Made by a program: the position numbers and the translations under genes | The notes under the pieces: generated by a model | What the model was told of the DNA's origin: nothing | The model's input: the letters and a program-made list of their open reading frames with translations, nothing else | Databases searched by the model: none | Part shown: in pieces, positions 44,901-59,500 of the stretch | How the letters are laid out: the number at the start of each line of letters is the position of its first letter | Numbering within the stretch: the first letter of the stretch is position 1 | DNA from: Hormiphora californensis | Lineage: Eukaryota; Animalia; Ctenophora | Direction: 5' to 3' | Length of the DNA stretch: 64,000 bases | Assembly (NCBI GenBank): GCA_020137815.1 | Contig: CM035357.1 | Location: forward strand, 7,688,001-7,752,000

Positions 44901-47900
44901 ATAAAATGGATGCTATTCTAAGTCTGGTAGACATCTCCGACAAAGAGGAGTTCTTCGAGCGGCTAAAGGCGTACTGGACACTAAAGAGGCAGGCCCGTAA
45001 TGGGGTGCCCTTGTTAAGGAGACTCCAGGTCTGCCACACTAGAACCACAGTCCTGTCTGAGGAAGACCAGGTGGATAAGGAGGAGATAGTAAAGTGTCAG
45101 AGGCTCAGACACGATCTGGAGAGGGCGAGGTTGCTAGTGGAATTGATCAGGAAGAGAGAGAAGAAGAAGAAGGAACAGGTAGCTATAGTGGGTGTGTAAT
45201 TGTACAGTCATGTTAATTGTTAGCTAGAGAGAAATGGTCTCTTGTGTTTTTCATCTCTAGTAGTTGGGTAAACAGTAAACACACACGCACAATGCACATT
45301 GAGCAACCCCCTCTACTATAAATCTAGTAGTTGGGCCTCTTCTACTTATTATCCAATAGGTGCTCCTTTCCCTAGTCAGACTCAGTGTAAACAACACAAT
45401 CACTACTAATATATAGCCCCCTCAGTTGAAGGTAGCCCAGCAGCTGCTAGAAATGGAGTTGTGTCCTCTTTCTTTTATCCTCAACAGAACTCTAGATAAC
45501 CTCCTGACACGGGATTCTGATGAACTCTTCCACGAACCTGTTGACACTGAGGAGGTATTGTATTAACATTTTAACCCACCCTCCATGCACGACCCTTTTT
45601 ATAACATTGTTATAGCCCACCTGCAGCCTGCACCCTGTTTATAACATTGTTATAACCCACCCACCCTGTTTATAACATTGTTATAACCCACCCACCCTGT
45701 TTATAACATTGTTATAACCCTTGTTATCAATGGTTTGATAGTGGTCTGGCTAAACAGGGTGCCCCCCATCCCAGGTAGAGGGATATCTAGATGTCATCCC
45801 TGAACCCATGGATCTCTCAACAATGCGACAAAAAGTTGAGATGTTGGAGTATACCTCCTTCGAGCAATTCAAGTTGGATTTCCATCTAGTTATTAATAAC
45901 TGTACTACATTTAACAAGACGGGCAGTGCTTATTACAAATACGCAGAGAGATATAGAGATAGCTGCCGGACTGTCCTAAACAGGTACCACAATGATACCA
46001 TCTGTCTAACTCATTTGAGCAACTGTGTCACACTTGTTGTGATCCATATCAGCATAACAAACTCATTCTCACTCCAACTAGATGTAAACAGACGATAGAG
46101 AATTCCCCTATCGACTGGGAGACTCTAACTCTAATAAAGGAAGGAGAGAAAACCCTGGAAGAGCAGTTAGAGACTGTCAGTCAGAAAGTCACTGAAGCAA
46201 AGAGTATTGCAAATTGGAGTGCCCGGAAATCTAAAATTAAACAGGTAAATATCATAGGTTCGGCTTGTGTGATAACTGAAAAGTACAACGAGCACACTAA
46301 GGGTGGTCCATAAATTGCACATATATACATATTGGTAATACTACCATGGTGTTGGTGATGAGCGTGACAGGATCAGTGTGTTTAACACCTTGGTGGCTGA
46401 CTGCGGTTTATTATCACCCCCCCCCCCCTGCAGCTACGAAGGGAGATCAAGCGGATAAAACAGCTGCAGTTGAGGAGTGAGGAGGAGGTTAGAAGCAACA
46501 CTGATTCCTCAACTACTACTAGTGGGGAACACAGTAAGTAGAACATCTAGTTAGACGTTTTCATAGACCTCGGGAGGAGGAATTACAGAAAAGCTTGAAC
46601 TCCTCCTTTTGAGGGTCTAATTGAGAGAAAACTAACAGCGCCATTTCACAGAGGTATTATCGGAGGACTCTAAATCTACAACTACAGAGACTCCGTCAGC
46701 TGTTGCAGTGGAGGAAAAGGGTGGAGCTAAGAAGAAGATTAGTGATTATTTCTCTAAAGCTGATCCCAAAACACCGCAAGGTAGTTGTATGAGTATATTG
46801 TTTTGCTCCTAGAAGGTACTTGTAAAGTATAATATTGTGTCTTGGAAAAGTAATACCAACCACCCAACTCCTAACAACCTCTCTCTCTCTCTCTAGGTGC
46901 TGGTGGTGTTAGTAACACTAGTGGTGCCTCAGCTAGTGGGGGAGAGAGGAGAAAGAGGTCACACATTCATGACGAAATGAAACAAGAGGTAAGTCAAAAT
47001 TAAGACACAGTTAGTTTTTGTGAGACAGTTAATTTGTGTCTAATACCTACATTATGATATGGCCTTCCGATCCACTAAATATCTGTTTTGACTCAGATTG
47101 CGGACCTACTGAATACCAACCAGGAAACTCTAGGCAAGAAAATTCTCCGATTCCTAAAGCGACATGACATCCCCGAGAAGAGAATGGGTAGTGATATATG
47201 TATGGATGTTAGTCAGTTATCGGCCTTCCTAAACAACAAGTGTTCTCTAACTAACACCAATAGAGAGCTGATATATGGTTGGTTTGTGCAGCAGCGACGA
47301 ACCAGAGAACCAGAGCGGCTAACTGAGGACCATGATAGCTCTAACGGTTAGTTTGGAGAGAGTGGCATTCTTTGTTTAGTTCTGTTTGAAACATTGTTCA
47401 CTGAATGTTGTTCCCCCTGCCCAGAGAGTGAAGTAGAATCAGAGGTTGATATACCTGGTCTGCCTAAAGATGGTGATGAAGATGAAGCAGAAGAAGAAGA
47501 AGGTAGCTGTGAAGAGAAGGAAGATGAGGTAGAAGAAGAAGTGGAGGAAGAAGAGGATGATCTTCCTAAGACACCCCTCCCTTCTAGATCCTCATCTCGA
47601 ACACCTAAACCTAGACAGCTAGACCTCCCTGACCTATCTCCCACAAGAAAGAGGAAACGATCCTCAACCAGCACCAGACGACAATACCCTTCTAGTCGGT
47701 CATCTGTAGGGGACGACAATGTATCTGAAGAGGGACTGGTGAGTCGGGTCAAGAAATGGGAGGGGGGGGGGGGCTTTTTTACAGACTTTGGTAGCTGATT
47801 TGTGTGGGACAAGTTATGGCGCAATGTTCTCACTGACTGTACTGTAACGCGCCGGGTGTCGTGCTATAGATATATTGCGCAAATCTCTACACTCCCGCGC

Positions 47901-48691
47901 GCTCTACTGTCAATGGTTTGTTTTGGTTGAGAATTTGACAGTTTTTACCACCTCTGTCTCTCATCTAACACCCTCTCCTACTTCAGAGTACCTTGAAACC
48001 AATGGATGTAGTGTGGGCCAAATGTGCTGGATACCCGACCTATCCGGCTATAATTGTGGACCCTAGCACCGCCCCTGGTTATACACATCACGGTATACCA
48101 ATACCCAGCCCTCCTTCAGAGGTTCTACAACAGCAACCTGATAAGGGACATTCCTTCCTTGTACTGTTCTTTGATATACGCCGCACATGGTAAATATTCA
48201 GTCAACAGAAATTCTGAAATTATCTTTTTATCTCAATTTAATCTGGAACTGCCTTTGTTTATGTCGATGTCATATATCTACAATCTAACTCTGCTTTTCC
48301 AGGCAATGGCTGCCCCACCGTAAGCTTCAGCAACTGGGAGTTGATACTGAACTAGATAATGCCAAACTGGCTGAGGGGAAGAAAGGAAGCGGCAAGAAAG
48401 GGATAGCTGAGGCATTCAAACGAGCACAAGTCCACCTCAAAGTTGTAAATGGTAAGAATTTACACTTCTAGATCAAACAGATGAACCAATCATCAAAAAC
48501 CCCCTAGTCAACTCTGTCTGGTGTTCGCTCTAAATTCGATTCACATATTTGAGCTAGATACTACGGTACTGTCTAAGACCTGTTTTCATATTCCAGGACA
48601 ATCCTCGGAACAGGATAACGAGGAGGAGACCCCAGAAAGTGATACAATGGAGACAGAGGAGGAGACAGCAGCAGAACCCGAACAGAACTGA
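41990..48691 (+). CDS. BRPF1: BRPF/peregrin (BRPF1/BRD1/BRPF3 family) chromatin reader
   Basis: EYDMDEED (EPC-like), [35 protein letters not shown], Zn knuckle/PHD2 ([29 protein letters not shown]), [18 protein letters not shown], bromodomain (PMDLSTM..NCTTFN), PWWP-like [24 protein letters not shown]. Paralogue assignment not possible. Confidence 0.95.
42581..42856. mobile_element. TA-flanked MITE in a BRPF intron, related to 18236-19964
   Basis: TIR taaagtcgagttttttaatcaagggacagggg / cccctgtcccttgattaaaaaattcgacta. Confidence 0.8.
45597..45720. repeat. ~30-bp intronic minisatellite with palindromic core
   Basis: Units ccaccctgtttataacattgttataaccca. Confidence 0.8.
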
Positions 48692-49185
48692 GATAATTAA
48701 CAGACTGCTTCAGTGTGTTTTATAATTCTAATCACTTCATTGAATTGGTCCATGGATTGTTTCAGTAAAGCTCAAACCTTTTCGTTGGTCTGATTCTTTG
48801 ATATTTGTTGTTACAATTTAAGTTTCATGGGAAAGAAGTTGAGAGAAAAGAAATTTATTTGAGGTGTACTTATCAGAATCACATTGACACAATATTTCTG
48901 CACTTTATGTCATATTGCTATGATACAAGTTTATTGCATTTTACAACTGAAAATATGTTGTTTAGAATCGCTTGAACAGAGTGCTTGGCTTCGTAAAAAT
49001 TTCGAACAAAAATGATACGCGCAAAACTTGCGCCGCGCATAAGATGAGAATTTACGCGCGCTCGCGTGCTTCAGAAAAAAACGGTTTGAAAAATTTTGCG
49101 GCTTTTAAGTTTCGTGAAATATTTTTGGTCTCAGTGAGAAAAGACCACTTTCTGAAGTTTCTCCTTTCTTTCAGAAGCTTTAGCT

Positions 49186-52100
49186 ATGTCTCACGGGTAA
49201 GTTTATAGTTTCCCATCTTCAGAATTTGTTCTTGACTCGTTTCAACCTCTCCAGGACGTATAACACACAGTGGAATGAGGCCCAGAATCAGATTAAGGAG
49301 CTCCTCGAGTATGAAGGAGCCCCTGAAACTCAGAAACCAGAAGTTGATCGAGTATCAGCATTTCAAACAGTCGCTGTTTTGTACATAAAATACATCCAAG
49401 TATTTCGGAAGCTGGAGGAATGTTATTATCAGATTGTCCACCCTCAAAAGAGAATCGTTCTCCGACATGTCCTTGATGGAACTATGGGAAGGTAATTTGT
49501 GACTCTATCTGTCCTGATTTACCTTACCATATAGTTTATTAGTTTATTGTTATTTCTTTGTTAACCCTGAGCCCGTTTCTAGGTTACTTGAGCTCAAGAA
49601 CGAGATGGTGAACCTGGAGTTCTCAGAGTATCACTTTTTCGACGACGTTCTGTCTGACATGAAGCTAACACCGAGTGACATTGAAATCCCAGTTCCTCGA
49701 TACTTCACACAAGATAATGAAAAGGACATTAAGGATCGAATGAAGTTGATGGCCGAGACTTTAGCTAAATATCGACTGGATGACACAGGAGACAAAAAGG
49801 AGGATACCAAAATGAGTTTAGAAGAGGCTATCAGAATAATTCAGGTTCATGAGAGAGCCCGACAAGGTTGCCTCAGGGCAAAGTTCATGAGAGAAATCAG
49901 AGCTCAAGAGGAAAGAGAGAAGATGCTATCAATGCAGGGAGCTTCCACAATGGATCCAGATGTTGCCTCGACCATCATTCAGAAAGTTTGGAAAGGTTAC
50001 TCTCAGAGGAACAAGACTCTGAAACTAAGGGAAGAGGAACTCATTTTCATAGGAATGCAGGCTACTTCAGATATACCATTCAACCACAAGGATTCACCAA
50101 TGAACAAACTTGCTAAGCGAGAGGTAAAGATAAGTATAATTCATATCAACATTGCTCTCTTTGATTTCCAACTTTTTGGTGTTGTAGTGATACTAACTCT
50201 CATCTCTACAACAGGAGGAGAGGGTATTGATACAGTCACAACACGAGAGAGAGTACCAAGATGCCCTTGTGAACATCAAGGAGAAGATCAGAGAGGCTGA
50301 AGGACCTGATATCAAGGAAAATATGCAGGACCAAATCAGGCAGTGGTTCATCGAGACAAGGTATTTTGGAAATGTGTAGAACGTATTACAGTTTCAAATG
50401 TTGCAGGCTTAGATCTCAGGTGAATATTTGTATTGTAAATTCCAAAGCCTATTTTAATTTAATTTTCTTGACTTCTTGTATCAACTATACAATACCCCCA
50501 GGGATGCAACAGGAAAGTTCCCTGATTATCCATCTGATGATGAGGGAGGTTCAGGAGCAATCTTCAAAACCAAAGAAGGCGAGGGAGAGGGCGATGAGAA
50601 CGGGGAGGGGAGCAAAAAGAAGGGAAAGAAGGGTAAAAAGAAGAAGGGAGAGAAGAAAGAAAAGAAGAAGAAGGGAAAGAAGAAAGGGAAGAAGGGTGAT
50701 AGCGGTGGGGGTGATGAAGAGGAAGGTTTCAAACTCGCACCATCTACTTTCATCCCCGGAATCGACGAGGCTTCTACTAACTATGATGAAATCTGGAAAC
50801 CTCGAGACGAAACAGATAACTTTCAACAGAAATATGATGCAGAACTTATAAAGGAGCTGAAGCGGTAAGCCAGACTTTTAAATCAACACAAAACCCACAC
50901 AAAATCATTATGACAAGACAGATACATAGAAAACGACTGTAACACATAGAAAACGACTGTAACACACAGAACCTGACTGTGACACACAGAACCTGACTGT
51001 GACACACAGAACCTGACTGTGACACACAGAAAATGACTGTGAAATTTCAGTGGGGAGGTTGAAAGTGAAATTCGAGTTCAGGTGGACGATCTGATGCGAC
51101 AGGAACTGAAAAATCTCAAAGCAGTACGTGCACACTTCTGATATATCGGGGGGGGGGGGGGGGGGGGGGGGGCCAACGAATTTTTTATATATTTCCTTAA
51201 TTTTGGAATTTTTTATATATATATAAAAATATATAAAAATATATAAAAATATATAAAAATATATAAAAATATATAAAGTTATATAAATAATATATAAAAA
51301 TATATAAAAATATATAAAATAAACCCTTTTTTCACCCCTTTTACTTTCAAAAAAAGGGGATTATTTCCATCTATTGTTCACTTGAATATGTTTCATAGAG
51401 TTAATTTAAGTGTTTGAAAGGGTGATAGCTGTTTTACATAATTGAGAATGTGTTCAAAAGTGAATTATGCACTGTCAAAAGTAGAACTGGTGAAGAGAGG
51501 TTCCGGCCTAATAATATCTACCAGTTTTGGTGTGATTTCAATCATTTTTTGTATGTTGATCCGTGAATATGTACTAGAACTGGTGAAGAGAGGTTGGGAT
51601 CGCGAAACTAAAAAAACAAATCATTTTTGACGTCATTTTGACGTCATGAAGTTATTGACGCGACGTCACGATGTTACAAACGTCACATTGATGACGGAAA
51701 ATCATCAGGATTATCTAGATGAAGATGCTGACCAAGTTTGAGATCAATTGAATGATATTTGATCCCGCTATGGCGAAAAACAGCTTTCTGTTTTCACACT
51801 TTCGGCACAATTTTTTATATATTTTTATATATTTTTTATATATTTTTATATATTTTTATATATTCATATGTATTTTTATATATTTTTATATATTTTATAT
51901 ATATATAAAAAATTATGTTTTTTTTTCCAAAAAAAAGTATATAAAATATATAAAAATATATAAAAAATGAGCGTTGCCCCCCCCCCCCCCCCCCCCGATA
52001 TCTCATTGTCTCATTACTTTCCTTTCTTTTGGGTCTCTTTAGTCCCTCTCACCTTTAGCTCTTTGTTCTGATGCTAAGTTCAGCTATCGATGGAGATTTT

Positions 52101-55100
52101 TATCAGGGATTTAAAATTTACACCCACCCGGACACCTATCACTCACAAACAACAAATACCCACAGAACACAACTATCGTCTGTACAAACGTTTGTAACAA
52201 AATCACTCACTTTAAACACGTTACACACTGACTACTCACAAACAGCCATTAAACAATCACACCCTTCACTCACTATCACACCCATATCACACCCACATCA
52301 CACCCACATCACACCCATATCACACCCTTCACTCACTATCACACCCATATCACACCCAGAGTAGAGGTGGAGCAGGAAGTGCGAACTCTGGTGGATCAGC
52401 AGATGAGAGATGAGCTGAAACTTCTAAAAGAAGTGAGAACAAACATCCCTCCCTTCTTGTTTCTAGTTTCTGACTTCATACCCTCAGGCGATCGAGAGAG
52501 ATAAGGGTAAAAAGGGAAAGAAAGGAAAGAAATCTGGCAAAAAGAAGGTAACAATTATTCAAATTGATTATTAATTGCCTCCATTATATCCGTTAGGCGT
52601 TACAAAAAGACGCAGGGAAAAAGGGAGGCAAAGGGTCAGCCAAGAAGAAGGTAGCTTCACAAAGCAAAGTGCTGATGTGAAGCAACAATACGTCCCATTT
52701 CCGCATAAAATCCCCAAATCTTTAATCCAAATGCTATCATCTTGTACCCAAGCAAGCAGGCTAAACTATTACTACTAGTAGTAGAAGGCTAAACTGTGTT
52801 TGTAAATCGTTGTGAAGCTATGCAGCCACAAACTGGGTAATGGGGGTAGTAGTGTCTTCATCGGTCTCTGATAGCTTGCTTTGTGAGTCTAGGGCAAGAA
52901 AAAGAAGGGTGGAAAAAAAGGGAAGAAAGGTAAAAAGGGGAAGAAAGGGAAGAAATCGAAAGATCTGACGGCGGGAAAGTAAGTTTTGTTCGAATGTTCG
53001 GATAATATCTTGCACTGTGCTAGCCGTGTAGATTAGTGCAATCTCAGTGCAATGTAATGTGTAATGATTCTCTGTGCAGCTGAAAAATTGGGAGTTGCTG
53101 ACTGTTACAATCTTTAAATCTTGTTACAATCTCTGATTCTTTTGCATGTTACAATTCGCATGACTGATTGAGTTTTAGGGCAAGAAAAAGGATAAGAAAG
53201 GAGGCAAAAAAGGAAAGAAAGAAAAGGATCTGACACCTGACAGGTCTGCATGATTTTAATTCTCGCTGTGATCTGCATGTTTTGATTTTCGTCCAATTCT
53301 TAACTTAACAAACCTATTTCACTAAATTGTATCTTTTGTTCAGAACCATTGAGAGTCTTTATGAAGAGTTGGTGAAAGAGGGAATACTGGTTCAGTATCC
53401 AAAAGTAAAGGTTTCAGACTTCATGGGAGAATACAGGTACCATTTTCCATCTCAATAAATTAGTAAATTACTACGAGTCTTCCACTTTACACAAACATTA
53501 TAATATCTTTTATTTTACTTGCTGTTTAACTATCGCTTTCCTCTCTCTCCAGTTATTTAGGCACAACACTGAGACAGGCGAATATAGAGCCTATGCCTTC
53601 ACTGGCAGATGTAAGACGAGTAACGACAGAGTATGGAATTCTCCCCATGGGTAGGTAGAAGGGAGTGAAACAGTGTTTTAGTTGGCGTTAAAAACTATAT
53701 TTCTAGTTGTATCTGAAGTTTTAACTTGCCAACTAAAATATCCCCTGCAGGCTCTCAAACGGTTCACGAGACTTCCCCGTTCATCAAATCACTGCTAATA
53801 GCCGGCCCACATGGCACTGGTAAGAGGATGTTGGTTAATGCTATCTGTTCAGAACTTGGGGCGAACCTTATGGACCTTACCGCTGAAAATATCTGTGGAA
53901 AATACCCAGGTAAATACTTATCGATAATTATTCAATATTGTTCCAGTCATCCCTTATAGGTAATTTTCTAACGAACAATTCATACTTCTAACCCCCATTT
54001 TCTCCCCAGGAAAGGCCGGTTTAACAATGTTGTTGCATCTTGTTATGAAAGTGGGCAAGTTACTCCAACCCACTATTGTCTACATTGGAAATGCAGAGAA
54101 AACATTCATCAAGAAAGTCCCGAAGAACGATATGAGTGATCCCAAGAGATTGAAAAAGGAGCTCCCTAAGATCATCAAGAAGATGACTGCTGAGGACAGA
54201 ATCATGTTCATTGGAACTTCTCTCACTCCATGGGATATCCTTTTTATGCTGGGACAAACTAACATGACAAACAGAAAATACAAACACTGTGACAAACATG
54301 ACAGACTTGCAACACTGATATTGATCTCAGTTTGTAAAACTGTAACGCGCGAGGCGATGGTTGAGTGAAAAGTACCTCTGTTATGGCGCGCGTAGGCAGT
54401 AGTTGCTATGGGAATCAGTGCTCGAACAAACTGACAAGCAACACAAACTCAGTGTACAAATACACACACGATAACATGCACGTTTTATTCCTTAACTCCA
54501 AATTATACATGGTGACGTAAAAGGGATGTGTCAGGTATACCAGAAGATTGTGTTGATCCCCAGACCCGACTATGCCTCGAGATACTGTAAGTTATAAACA
54601 AGGCAATGTTCAGAGTTCAGACTTCACTGATAATGAGATATCCCAGGCTAGATTATATTCAATTTCTCTTCCAGTGCTATTCAAGGAAGTGATACTAAGA
54701 ATGGGAGGTAGACTGTCAGCTACCCTAGACCTCAGTTCCCTTGCCAAGATCTCAGATGGGTACACACCGGGACACATTGTTAGCGCTGTTAAACACGTTC
54801 TAACTGAACGGAGAGTCCAACAGGTAAACAACCCCACGCCTTCCTCTCTCTCACTCTCAGTACCCTCTCATCACGACTCCCCAGAACACAGCATCTTGCC
54901 ATCTTAGAGCTAAGATCTGAGATGTAAGAGTGTACAACTCGACCTCCTACTCACCCCCTTCTCTCCCCCATTAGTTGGCAAGAAAACCCCTGACTGCTGC
55001 TGAGTTTGTAACCCCCCTGGCTAGAGTTGACCCTATTTACAAGGAGGAAGAAGAACAATTCAAGGTATACTTTGCACCTGTTTATTTGTTAATTTGTTCA

Positions 55101-55868
55101 GGGTCTTCCGGAAATAATCACGTAAATTTAAAAGACGTTGTAGGTCAGAGCTACAGGCCACAGCCAACAAAAGAGAAAGGGAGAGGCCAAGGGACATCTT
55201 AGAAAGGGCTGTTGCGTCTTTACTTTTTAGAATAAATAAAGAGATGAGATTATAAGAATTAAGAAAGGGTAGATTAAGTCCCAGGTATACTTGTGAGGTT
55301 AATGTGGTATTGGTGGTTGTGAACAGCTCCCCCGTGTCTTCTAGGCGTTCTATGACAAGACTACACTGGGTAAAAAGAGGCAGGAGCTTCTGAAAAGCGA
55401 GGCAGAAGGATAAATGTAAATCAAACAGAGCGCCCCTGCCCCCTCATTCATTGTGTAGCACCTCTCGCGTAGATTTGAAATTAATAAATCCAACTTGAGC
55501 ATTGAAAGGCCCATTACTCATAACTTTCTTGCCCACACCTTCTGTAAAATTAGAGTGAGGCATAATGATTATACCCAAAACCACCAAATTAAGCACACTC
55601 AGATAGTTAGTTCTTACTCCCTTATTTTTCCTTTGAAAACATACTTCTTACTTAGCACATCTCCCTGTATATTTGTTTCCTATTTCTCACTATCTTCCCC
55701 CGCCCAGAAATGGTACGCCAAGACCCCCCTCGGGAAGAAGAGAGCTAAGCTGAAGGCGGAGGATGAGGAAGGAGAGGGTGGAGGCAAGGGTGGAAAGGGT
55801 GCCAAGGGAGGAAAAAGAAAGGAAAGGGAAAGAAGAAGGGTAAAGGAAAAAAGAAAAAGGGGAAGTGA
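49186..55868 (+). CDS. IQCA1: IQ and AAA domain protein 1 / dynein regulatory complex subunit 11
   Basis: [31 protein letters not shown] motif [34 protein letters not shown] Walker [48 protein letters not shown]. Confidence 0.95.
50920..51040. repeat. 20-bp intronic minisatellite
   Basis: Units acacacagaacctgactgtg. Confidence 0.85.
51148..51996. mobile_element. MITE with poly-G/poly-C ends and (atatataaaa)n subterminal arrays
   Basis: G-run+caacg and cgttg+C-run ends; flanks gatatatc / gatatctc (imperfect 8-bp TSD). Confidence 0.7.
54235..54508 (+). other. U12-type (minor spliceosome) AT-AC intron in IQCA1
   Basis: 5' ATATCCTTT, branch site TTCCTTAAC at 54488-54496, 3' AC; splicing restores PW-DGDVKGMC. 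Confidence 0.92.
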
Positions 55869-56502
55869 ACTGTGATTTTAAGAGAGTTCCTGTTCAGAAT
55901 ATTTTATAGATATTATGTTGAGTGTAAGATATGTAGACTGAATTGATTTTCTACCTTCTCCCGTGAGAACCAAAAAGTCTCCCGTTTTACGAAACTATAC
56001 AAAACCCCACACACATATCGGATACCCTCGACAAGATCCAGGGCCATGCTGATCTCGAACGCTTCCGGAACTGTCATAGCATTGGCCTGACCCTATTCTC
56101 TAGTGCGTGTGAGAACCGTGGTCAGAGCATTGGCCTGACAGTTCCGGAAGCTGTGTGTGTGGGATTTTCTAGCATTGAAACTCGAATATTTTGGAAAGGG
56201 ATCTCTTCAAAAAACGAAGAATACATTTACACCACTACTTATCTGAAGATTCACACGTCTGGTAGGTAGGACTGAGAGTTCACTATGCACATTGCACTCT
56301 AATATACTGTAGAGGGGTATTTACACACACAAGAGTATTTTATATGAACATCATGTCAGGATTCTATTGGTACACAGTACTACTAAGAAATGAGGTCCTT
56401 ATAATAAAGTCGCAGGGGTCTTAGAACTGTCTCTATCGCAGGGTTTTAGAATTGTCTCTCTCTCGGCTGATATATTGATCAACTTTTCACACGGCGATTA
56501 GT

Positions 56503-59500
56503 TTAGCCAGCTGACTTGTTAAGATTGTAGTAGACCCCCTTCTTGGCCAATAGCTCCTTGTGTTGTCCCCATCTCAACAACAGCACCTTCTTGAATCACA
56601 CAAATCAGATCAGCGTTCTTGATGGTGGATAGTCGATGGGCAATCACCAGACTTGTTCGGCCCTCTCGTGCCTTGTCCAGGGCTTCTTGGACCACCTACA
56701 TAGGATAGTATTTGGTCAGTATAGGATAGTATTTGGTGAGGGGTCTGCAGTTTTATTCAGTGGTAGTTGTTGACTGTTGAGTGAAACTTATAGGATTTTG
56801 AAACTTACCTTCTCACTCTCTGTATCAAGGGCACTGGTCGCCTCATCAAGAAGGAGAATCTTAGGATTACGGACGAGAGCCCGGGCAATGGCTATCCTCT
56901 GTTTCTGGCCACCAGACAGTTGCGTTCCCTTCTCCCCGACTCGGGTCTTGTAGCCCTGTAGAAACATATTATTGAATATCCTGCATACAGTTAGGGAGAA
57001 GAAAGGGGTAGTACTTGTTAAGTAACAACAAGGTTATATTAAGTACTTACATCAGGCAGAGATAAGATAAAGTTGTTGATGTTTGCTGCTATAGCAGCCT
57101 TCTTTACTTCGTCTTCAGACACTTTTCGGTGGAGTGCACCATATCTGATATTCTCTGGGAGAGTGGGGGAGGGGGATTAGTTTTCTGTGATCCAGCAATG
57201 TACTGGTAATCATGGGACGAAGATTTGACTCCCTCCCCTCGGATAGTATATAGGGATTAGAGGCCCTTTATCTAAAGGTTAACCACAGTACCTTCAATTG
57301 AGTAATCGAATAGAACAGGTTCCTGAGACACAAGACCCATCTGTTGCCGGAGATGGGCCACATTGATACCCTTCAAATCCTGTCCGTCCACAGACTAAGG
57401 GGCAGTACTTTATTAGTTACACGATATTGTTACATCTAGACAAGTATTGAAAGAGGGAGGGGTAATAACTTACCACGACACCTTCCAGCACATCGTAGAA
57501 TCTCTGTGTCAGTTGGACGGATGTTGATTTCCCACACCCACTCTGCCCAACTAGTGCAATGGTCTTACCAACGTCAATATTGAATGATAGACCTGTATTT
57601 GGTGGATATGTTAGGGATCGATCAATTTACTGAAAGAGTAGCAAAGAATCAGAAGTGAGACGAGTCTTCGCATAATTCAAGGAACTCACCTTGCAGTACT
57701 TTAACGTCAGGTCGTGTAGGGTAGTCAAATCGGACATTATCGAAACCTAGTGCTCCCCTTATCTCAGGCTAAAATAAGGATTAGACTTTAAAGTGTGTTC
57801 TAAATAGAACACCGCGTTGCTATGGAATCAATCTAAGTATTCAAGCGGCAATCGATCCAATACCGTACGTGACAGATGAATTGTTGCGCGCTCGATAATT
57901 CTGAGATGTCATCGCGCGTTACAACTAAATCCAGGCAAGCGGCAAGCTGTGCTTGTACAGAGAGATACGTCACGCGGGAGGTACAGAGGAGGTACCACGT
58001 ACGGCTTTTCGACACATTCCCTCTCTCTCTCTCTCTCTCTCTATATAGATCTGTACCTTGCTTCCTTCAGTTGAGTAAGCATCAATTGGTGGCTCACTAT
58101 TGATAAGCTGGAAGATCTTGAAAGCGCTATGTTTCGCTTTGCTATAATCGGGTAGCAGGGACATAGTCTGTCCAATAGTCATTGCAGCAAACACAATACC
58201 AGAAAATACCCTGAGAGGGGGAGAGAGTGTTAGATAATTAACATGGACAGAGTATTGAGCGAGAGATCACAGATGTTAGTCGGTGTTAGTCCCACACTTT
58301 AAACTTTAGACACTTGAACGATTCAAGGGTACCGGATGCATGGAGATCAATTGATAGCTAAAACATGACCATATAAGGCAATAAAAAGAAGTCTATAATC
58401 TCAGCGGATTTTCTTTGTACTCACTTCATCACTTCCTCAAATTTAAGGCCTTCTTTATTCATCAAATAGCTACCATAGTAAAACACTCCAGCATAGGTAA
58501 GGAAGATGGCTGCCTCTGCAAGACCCATTGAAATCCCAGTTAAGTGGGCCTGTCTCCGATACTTCCTGGGAAGGAACTGTAAAGCAGATATACGGATAAG
58601 ACACAAAGAGAGAAGATAGTAACTAAAACCACAACGTACTGGGCAGGGTACTTGAGAGAATCCTTGTATTTCTTGATAAAGACATCCTCCAAATTAAGGG
58701 ATGCTACTGTCCTCATGTTCTCAATACTTTCACTGGCTGTCTTCCCTGCCTCTTCGTATATCTTCTTCATCTTTCCCATAGTACCAGCAAGCTGGAGCAT
58801 CTGTACACTGCCTATAACACGGCGAGGGAGAGGGGTGGTGAACTAGTAGAAAGTGAACCTATACACATTGTAAAATTTTGAGATATAATATAATTCTTTA
58901 GGTAGCACTGCTTGTACAACTTATAACACTGGGCAGTGTTATAAGTTTTTACTTATAACACTGGGCAGTGTTATAAGTTTTCACTTATAACACCCCCCAG
59001 TGATACATGAAAACTTATAACACTGCTGCACTTCGAACTTCACTGTTTCTGTCACGTTTAAAAACCGTTAGAAAGATAAACGTGTACGAACTCCCTCTCT
59101 CTCTTTCTTTATGTCACACTCTCACGCCCTTGCAGCATCGAGATCAAGATAACGGTTACGAACTCCCGGACCCACACATTCTTTATCTCTCTCACTCTCA
59201 CTAATCTCTCACTCTCTTTACCTATCTCAGGCGTTATCTTATCTTATACTGATTTCTCTGCCTGCTACCTTATCATGAATTTGTTCTATTGTTACGCCCT
59301 AAAGTGTCTCTCACTCTTGTTTAAAAAATTTTACAATGCAATTTTATTATGCCTGTTTTCGTTGTACCTGACGTCAACAATAATGTCCCAGATTCGTACA
59401 CTTTTAGACCTCGCAGGCTCGGTCAAAAAGTAAAACTACATCACTCGCAGGCTCGTGAGGTAGTCACACTTAGTGGCACTCGCAGGCTCGTGCACTAAAG

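Follow-up and report, generated by a model that had tools for sequence, protein, structure and literature searches.

Can a single gene supply several versions of an axonemal linker through duplicated exons, and what would these versions change in the cilium? This question is raised by the DRC11 (IQCA1) gene in a 64,000-nucleotide (nt) stretch of the genome of the ctenophore Hormiphora californensis (GenBank assembly GCA_020137815.1, contig CM035357.1, positions 7,688,001 to 7,752,000 of the forward strand). The whole of this stretch is hereafter called the window, and coordinates count from its first letter. An earlier inspection of the letters (the sequence-only reading) had pointed out three pairs of duplicated exons in this gene and had proposed that they may act as a switch between two isoforms, one with a canonical and one with a variant exon set. 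We find tandem exon duplication at four positions of DRC11, designated A, B, C and D. The A and B pairs are spliced as mutually exclusive exons in four ctenophore lineages, over which a crosswise coupling between the two choices is conserved, and the D pair, overlooked in the earlier inspection, accounts for the largest change in the protein, that of its C-terminal basic tail.

Four duplicated exon positions in a ctenophore DRC11 gene

The six exons listed in the sequence-only reading were all verified in the sequence, with AG/GT ends, open frames and the phases assigned to them (Table 1), and the A, B and C pairs each consist of adjacent homologous exons with matching phases. That list of three pairs was sound as far as it went and fell short by a fourth pair, D1/D2. 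For exon scoring, outgroup profiles were built from 69 non-ctenophore DRC11 rows. Both strands of the window together have 158 open AG..GT stretches of 73 nt in phase 2-0; two of them, A1 (66.5 bits) and A2 (20.2), reached positive scores against the A profile, and the next-best score was -62.8. With the C profile, 2115 donors that close an open stretch of phase 0-2 gave positive scores for C2 (30.1) and C1 (17.7) alone, followed by -8.7. The A and C duplicates are far above chance.

The assignment of the six exons to a ctenophore DRC11 gene, as the sequence-only reading had it, is borne out by a whole-length match, the fold and a tree. In a protein search exon 3 is 91% identical to DRC11 of Mnemiopsis leidyi, and the next match, a coral, reaches 63%. 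The window model as a whole shares 89% identity with Mnemiopsis, 88% with Bolinopsis and 85.5% with a ctenophore metagenome contig (L001), and the tree has the form (L001,(window,(Mnemiopsis,Bolinopsis))) with support of 99-100. Solved DRC11 chains were matched over their whole length (E 1.9e-281) and in fold by the Mnemiopsis proteins, used as queries at 89% identity to the window model. The C-terminal AAA domain is present (PF00004 at 577-704); the IQ-like stretches align with human DRC11, and a Pfam scan returned no IQ match. Orthology points to a location of the window protein in the axoneme's N-DRC (nexin-dynein regulatory complex).

Exclusive and crosswise use of the A and B exons

RNA evidence was taken from contigs of four runs of mixed environmental RNA (X1-X4), aligned to positions 52345-55800. 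The source organism of X3 is 90-99% alike to the window; X2 and X4 hold no information on A, B or D exons. Run X3 displays a two-path pattern, with one contig reading exon5-A2-B1-C2 and another exon5-A1-B2-C2; A1 was identified there from a 103-nt loose end, whose displayed 30 nt correspond to the end of A1, itself outside the aligned stretch. A scan of half of a metagenome collection (22 loci) yielded three spliced ctenophore contigs, L001 (A2-B1-C2-D1), L002 (A1-B2-C2-D1) and L003 (A1-B1-C2-D1, with a one-base gap in B1), and the protein cluster of L001 adds P0305 (A1-B2) and P0307 (A2-B1). Both A1-B2 and A2-B1 thus also occur in a more distant ctenophore that branches outside the window species and the lobates. 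The Mnemiopsis protein cluster has 11 members, all with C2 and D1, eight of which are NCBI models: three from Mnemiopsis leidyi (KAL5266276-8) and five from Bolinopsis microptera (XP_063685904-6, XP_063685266-7). These models comprise three A1-B1, three A1-B2, two A2-B1 and no A2-B2 forms, and none carries C1 or a D2-coded tail. The Mnemiopsis isoforms probably stem from RNA-guided annotation as described in PMC11797021, a paper that we connect with the records by inference. Bolinopsis isoforms X4 and X5 depart from isoforms X1 and X3 in two constitutive residues, and their accession numbers are far apart on one chromosome (P0121-P0126), which suggests two loci or haplotypes; to judge by the numbering, XP_063685263-5 may represent longer isoforms from a second locus.

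Both members of the A pair and of the B pair are therefore spliced in RNA contigs, in NCBI models and in ctenophore contigs, as expected of alternative exons. No form with both or neither A, or with both or neither B, is present among the 11 assembled transcripts or the 8 models, a small sample of contigs rather than reads. The 11 assembled transcripts that span A and B divide into seven A1-B2 (one of them also a RefSeq model), three A2-B1, one A1-B1 and no A2-B2, so that each derived exon tends to go with the ancestral-like member of the other pair (B2 mostly with A1, A2 with B1); the coupling is crosswise rather than one of canonical versus variant exons. The suspected linkage between the choices thus exists, with the derived exons kept apart rather than together. 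A single linked switch between the canonical set and a variant set A2-B2-C1 could appeal to this coupling (Fisher p 0.024, 1/7 versus 3/0, on rows that are not independent) and to the clean two-path pattern of X3, yet A2-B2 is missing from transcripts and models alike, A1-B1 exists as a third form and C1 occurs in none of them. The two-isoform switch of the sequence-only reading is on these grounds largely refuted, and we consider it very improbable.

The reading frame constrains these choices only in part. Among the 64 include/skip combinations of the six exons, 19 yield more than 760 amino acids (aa). Of these, 16 contain a single A together with a single C, and three dispense with A and C alike, a combination seen in no transcript. 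The B exons are unconstrained in this test, and joint inclusion of B1 and B2 is allowed by frame, as had been said.

Age and maintenance of the copies

The proportion of synonymous differences (pS) between the window and its relatives is near saturation (0.65-1.1), and the ratio of the non-synonymous proportion (pN) to it, pN/pS, is 0.06-0.10 in two constitutive exons, over few codons. Against the relatives, and again over few codons, pN/pS is 0.05-0.09 for A1 and 0.25 for A2. Exon B1 shares 20 of 20 residues with L001, with nine synonymous and no non-synonymous differences (pN/pS 0), and B2 compared with L002 gives 0.08; D1 ranges from 0.22 to 0.36. Such values (0.08-0.36) point to purifying selection on A2, B2, D1 and D2, and the earlier view of old, maintained duplicates agrees with the near-saturated synonymous distances and low ratios.

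The derived A2 has a signature of its own. All four A2 sequences share Leu at a mostly-Gln site, have Gln at a site that is Leu or Ile throughout the 69 other DRC11 rows and lack the Asn kept in 66/69; A2 also departs from the Glu found in 66/69. The A2 rows cluster with support of 96/97 in a 24-column tree with long branches, and a single A duplication predating the split of the L001 lineage would be the simplest reading.

An element at 51139-52005 fills most of the A1-A2 intron and has inverted ends, with poly-G and poly-C flanked by a short inverted motif and with AT-rich tandem arms. No second copy of its core was found in the window. It is possibly a foldback or miniature transposon, and could pair and so shorten the intron. 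Short tandem repeats lie directly 5' of both A acceptors, at 50921-51040 (20-nt units) for A1 and at 52256-52358 (11-nt units) for A2, and the A1 acceptor is poor in pyrimidines.

A stop cassette at the C terminus

Exon D1 has its donor 2 nt past its stop codon. When D1 is included, the protein ends in a tail of 22 residues and D2 becomes 3' untranslated region (UTR); when D1 is skipped, D2 codes for a long lysine-rich tail. RNA joints document exon15-D1 (X1, X3) as well as D1-D2 and exon15-D2 (both X1). The joining of D1 to D2 in X1, L002 and L003 sets this pair apart from exons that are never used together: D1 is a stop cassette, exclusive at the protein level only. In L002 and L003 the open frame of D2 is intact within the UTR (pN/pS 0.13), and L001 ends after D1 with a different UTR, a third 3' end. 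A Lys/Gly tail is typical of animal DRC11 (median of 15 Lys/Arg past the conserved motif in 66/69 rows). The net charge of the tail is +1 with D1 and +17 with D2, the latter value being taken from relatives, and D1 also substitutes a Trp and a Pro, each present in 67/69 other rows. Both L002 and L003 end in a poly-Lys tail; in the window D2, a run of five A at 55812-55816 puts the last 18 codons out of register with theirs and is likely an assembly slip.

The C pair

All transcripts and models examined contain C2. C1 is an intact duplicate with a consensus donor and a branch-like motif, and differs from C2 with pS 0.77, pN 0.12 and pN/pS 0.16 in a low-complexity alignment, its synonymous distance equalling the between-species level. 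When neutral decay was simulated in 20000 trials, its features outlasted 0.1 changes per site in 3.3% of them and 0.3 changes per site in none. Inclusion of C1 was found in no RNA joint and in 0 of 425 proteins examined, and both X3 joints that span C1 skip it. Apparent coverage of C1 by X1, X2 and X4 proved spurious: the pieces are short and of low complexity, and their loose ends consist of unrelated sequence. The missing joints, models and proteins would be explained if C1 were a pseudo-exon, either silenced recently or restricted to a lineage, and no longer spliced; we rate this at somewhat below even chances: the divergence from C2 is of between-species age under apparent constraint, neutral decay seldom spares such features, and the D2-coding form is likewise missing from all models yet present in RNA. 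We lean towards C1 being presently used, probably as a seldom-used high-charge option.

Proposed splicing logic

For the A pair, the frame shift would remove double-A and no-A products, and likewise double-C and no-C products for the C pair. For the B pair, the intron between B1 and B2 measures 49 nt and has its branch-like motifs at 20 and 27 nt from its donor; it is predicted to block their joint inclusion sterically, and no form with both was seen among the transcripts and models examined. A steric threshold near 50 nt has been proposed for vertebrates in PMC7969005. Introns of 55 and 58 nt are spliced here with branch-like motifs 41 and 39 nt from the donor, respectively, so that the threshold must be lower in this gene or is uncertain; no minimum intron length for ctenophores was found in the literature. 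Lying 55 nt from the A2 donor, the B1 acceptor would capture it and so account for the absent A2-B2 form, and the distant A1 donor would be free to use B1 or B2. Predicted RNA structure across A2-B2 is no better than in shuffled sequences (z -1.45), and we therefore propose no docking or selector model. Transcripts with D1, whose stop lies 2 nt ahead of the donor, would escape decay.

What the isoforms may do

A structure predicted for the A2-B1 form puts A within helix 426-463 and D1 within the last helix; B and most of C fall in a loop that is disordered (predicted local distance difference test score, pLDDT, below 50 at 464-492). The net charge of the loop is +12 with B2-C2, +15 with B1-C2 and +23 with B1-C1, against a median of +16 in other DRC11 (65/69 rows); A1 and A2 are equal at -2. 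According to structural data reported in PMC10266980, and similarly in PMC10504270, DRC2, DRC4 and DRC11 place at least 60 lysines toward the next doublet, and by analogy B, C and D would alter lysine-rich segments of this kind. A protein with B2, C2 and D1 would have about 20-26 fewer basic residues than one with B1, C1 and D2, which would weaken the bond to polyglutamylated tubulin, and A2 would change the helix leading into the loop. On DRC4, experiments described in PMC5555654 found that lysine removal and the addition of 23 basic residues both slow swimming, and the span of the ctenophore isoforms is similar to these 23. The reading that we favour, by a little over even chances, is that splicing at A, B and D tunes the electrostatic hold of the N-DRC on the neighbouring doublet, probably according to cilium type, the assignment of isoforms to cilia being an inferred step.

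Several points weigh against this reading. The A exons are equal in charge and the B exons differ by 3, so charge alone cannot explain the A/B switch. Charge reversal on DRC2, the same change as on DRC4, had little effect (PMC5555654, as described there), and a Chlamydomonas drc11 mutant is reported to swim only slightly slower (10.1101/684316); the doublet-facing segment of DRC11 itself may be loop 1, loop 2 or the tail. The RNA is of mixed environmental origin, and its contigs show presence, not level, with rare forms dropping out and contig depths left unused as expression. The 11 assembled transcripts are not mutually independent, coding use of D2 rests on one joint in one run (X1), inclusion of C1 is absent throughout and the branch points are motif predictions.

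The isoforms may instead matter by way of partner contacts rather than charge: the changes that A2 and D1 make to conserved helix residues would affect how the protein folds against the AAA domain, or how it touches DRC8/calmodulin, DRC4 or the stalks of inner-arm dyneins. A1 and A2 indeed differ at near-invariant positions at equal charge, D1 loses the conserved Trp and Pro, and contact of DRC8/11 with the stalk of dynein e is described in PMC10504270; B and C, however, lie in a disordered Lys/Gly loop, and D1 chiefly loses a basic tail. We hold this account to be unlikely, and the two mechanisms can act together. A mixture of near-equivalent isoforms in all cilia, with duplicates kept by partition of ancestral roles or by dosage and with no cilium-type meaning, would agree with the mixed RNA, the co-occurrence of both A/B forms in one run and the mild drc11 phenotype of Chlamydomonas (again as reported in 10.1101/684316). 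It appears decidedly improbable to us, since the derived exons hold their own signatures across four lineages in which the crosswise coupling recurs, and since the frame of D2 is kept although it is mostly UTR. The tuning reading can be carried further, to an electrostatic clutch by which one gene would set inter-doublet friction by cilium type: the low-charge A1-B2-C2-D1 in the giant comb-plate cilia and higher-charge forms, up to A1-B1-C1-D2 with about 26 more basic residues, in sperm or ordinary cilia, with tunicates and brachiopods having gained like DRC11 duplicates independently. This extension is speculative and, as a whole, rather unlikely. The main text of a comb-plate preprint makes no mention of DRC, nexin, IQCA, isoform or splicing; its supplements may list DRC11 peptides.

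The gene and its surroundings

Table 1. Exons and short introns of the DRC11 gene in the window.
Feature	Position	Strand	Evidence
Exon A1, ancestral-like, 73 nt, phase 2-0, part of helix 426-463	51051..51123	+	X3, L002, L003
Exon A2, derived, 73 nt, phase 2-0	52360..52432	+	X3 contig; Mnemiopsis, Bolinopsis, L001
Intron A2-B1, 55 nt, spliced; branch-like motif 41 nt from donor	52433..52487	+	joint 52432-52488
Exon B1, ancestral-like, 60 nt, net charge +9, disordered loop 2	52488..52547	+	RNA joint to C2
Intron B1-B2, 49 nt, shortest of 19 in model; branch-like motifs 20 and 27 nt from donor	52548..52596	+	gene model
Exon B2, derived, 54 nt, net charge +6	52597..52650	+	X3 contig A1-B2-C2
Exon C1, intact C2 duplicate, 86 nt, net charge +14, in no transcript	52893..52978	+	sequence
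Exon C2, 65 nt, net charge +6, shared by all transcripts and models examined	53179..53243	+	RNA contigs, models
Exon D1, derived copy of last exon's start; in-frame stop 55411-55413, 22-aa tail, net +1	55345..55415	+	X1, X3 joints; L001-L003
Exon D2, ancestral-like last exon, long Lys/Gly tail	55708..55875	+	exon15-D2 joint in X1
Coding exons 1-5	49186-49196, 49255-49491, 49583-50123, 50215-50360, 50502-50864	+	gene model
Constitutive exons 9-15, AAA domain	53344..55064	+	RNA joints, PF00004

Exons 1-5 encode the helical N-terminal part, the IQ-like motifs and the constitutive lysine-rich loop 1. At the Walker B-like site (window ~54085-54100) every ctenophore sequence examined has Asn, versus Asp in 53 of 69 other DRC11 rows, so that ATP hydrolysis by DRC11 may have been lost in ctenophores. 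The intron at 54235-54508 (+) is of the AT-AC minor class: its 5' motif is typical, something like a branch motif lies near 54489-54497, and its AT..AC splice is present in run X1, one contig of which also covers part of the intron. A PWWP-domain gene (46000-48700, +) ends about 500 nt upstream of DRC11, and an exon recognised by its motifs as that of an ABC transporter lies downstream (56808-56957, -).

Relation to known systems and significance

Solved DRC11 proteins share Lys-rich loops and the AAA domain, along with IQ-like stretches, with the window protein, which differs from them by its four duplicated exon positions. The two DRC11 genes of Tetrahymena and the mammalian IQCA1 and IQCA1-like are whole-gene copies, unlike the exon copies of ctenophores. 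The mutually exclusive exon clusters of muscle myosin heavy chain genes, including the predicted one in Mnemiopsis Mhc2 as presented in PMC3912159, are likewise tandem exon duplicates that retune a motility protein; DRC11 differs from that cluster in being an axonemal linker with use shown by RNA, two coupled clusters and one stop-bearing cassette. Frame-preserving exon skipping in Mnemiopsis is reported in PMC6142364. Exons 4a/4b of OGDH, as treated in PMC7969005, are of the same sterically enforced type, with a branch site less than about 50 nt from the upstream donor, whereas in the DRC11 B pair the block would act through a very short intron.

Swapped homologous blocks also occur in other animals. 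Isoforms X1/X2 of Styela clava DRC11 (P0012/P0145) have two homologous C-terminal ends starting from the same point as D1/D2, and those of Lingula anatina (P0027/P0146/P0147) carry two versions of a 22-residue stretch, one model having both in tandem. Their blocks differ from the ctenophore sequences, that of Lingula lying at another position (the second IQ-like motif), and are probably independent of the ctenophore ones, which suggests repeated exon duplication in DRC11. Sixteen pairs of isoforms or cluster members, taken from cnidarians, echinoderms, molluscs and reptiles, showed no swapped homologous block. No further ctenophore cluster appeared among the short-protein matches listed (best 120 of 238) or the full-length L001 matches (best 120 of 1272), and a D2 search of 50% representatives returned one mussel-like fragment only.

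Already known are duplicated exclusive exons in motility proteins and the A1-B1, A1-B2 and A2-B1 isoforms, which the NCBI models of Mnemiopsis and Bolinopsis encode automatically, without description. The open-licence literature yielded no description of DRC11 exon choice or isoforms or of the ctenophore N-DRC, and for mutually exclusive splicing in ctenophores only the predicted myosin cluster, as PMC3912159 presents it. New are the crosswise coupling over four lineages, the stop cassette with its conserved silent tail exon, C1, and the parallel duplicates of Styela and Lingula.

Tuning of the N-DRC link is ascribed to tubulin, by way of polyglutamylation. Natural, conserved isoforms that vary the basic side would be a second, genetically encoded dial on this link, and those of DRC11 would let the electrostatic model be tested directly in an animal whose body bears very different cilia. 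Conserved and coupled mutually exclusive splicing is herewith documented in ctenophores, the sister group of other animals.

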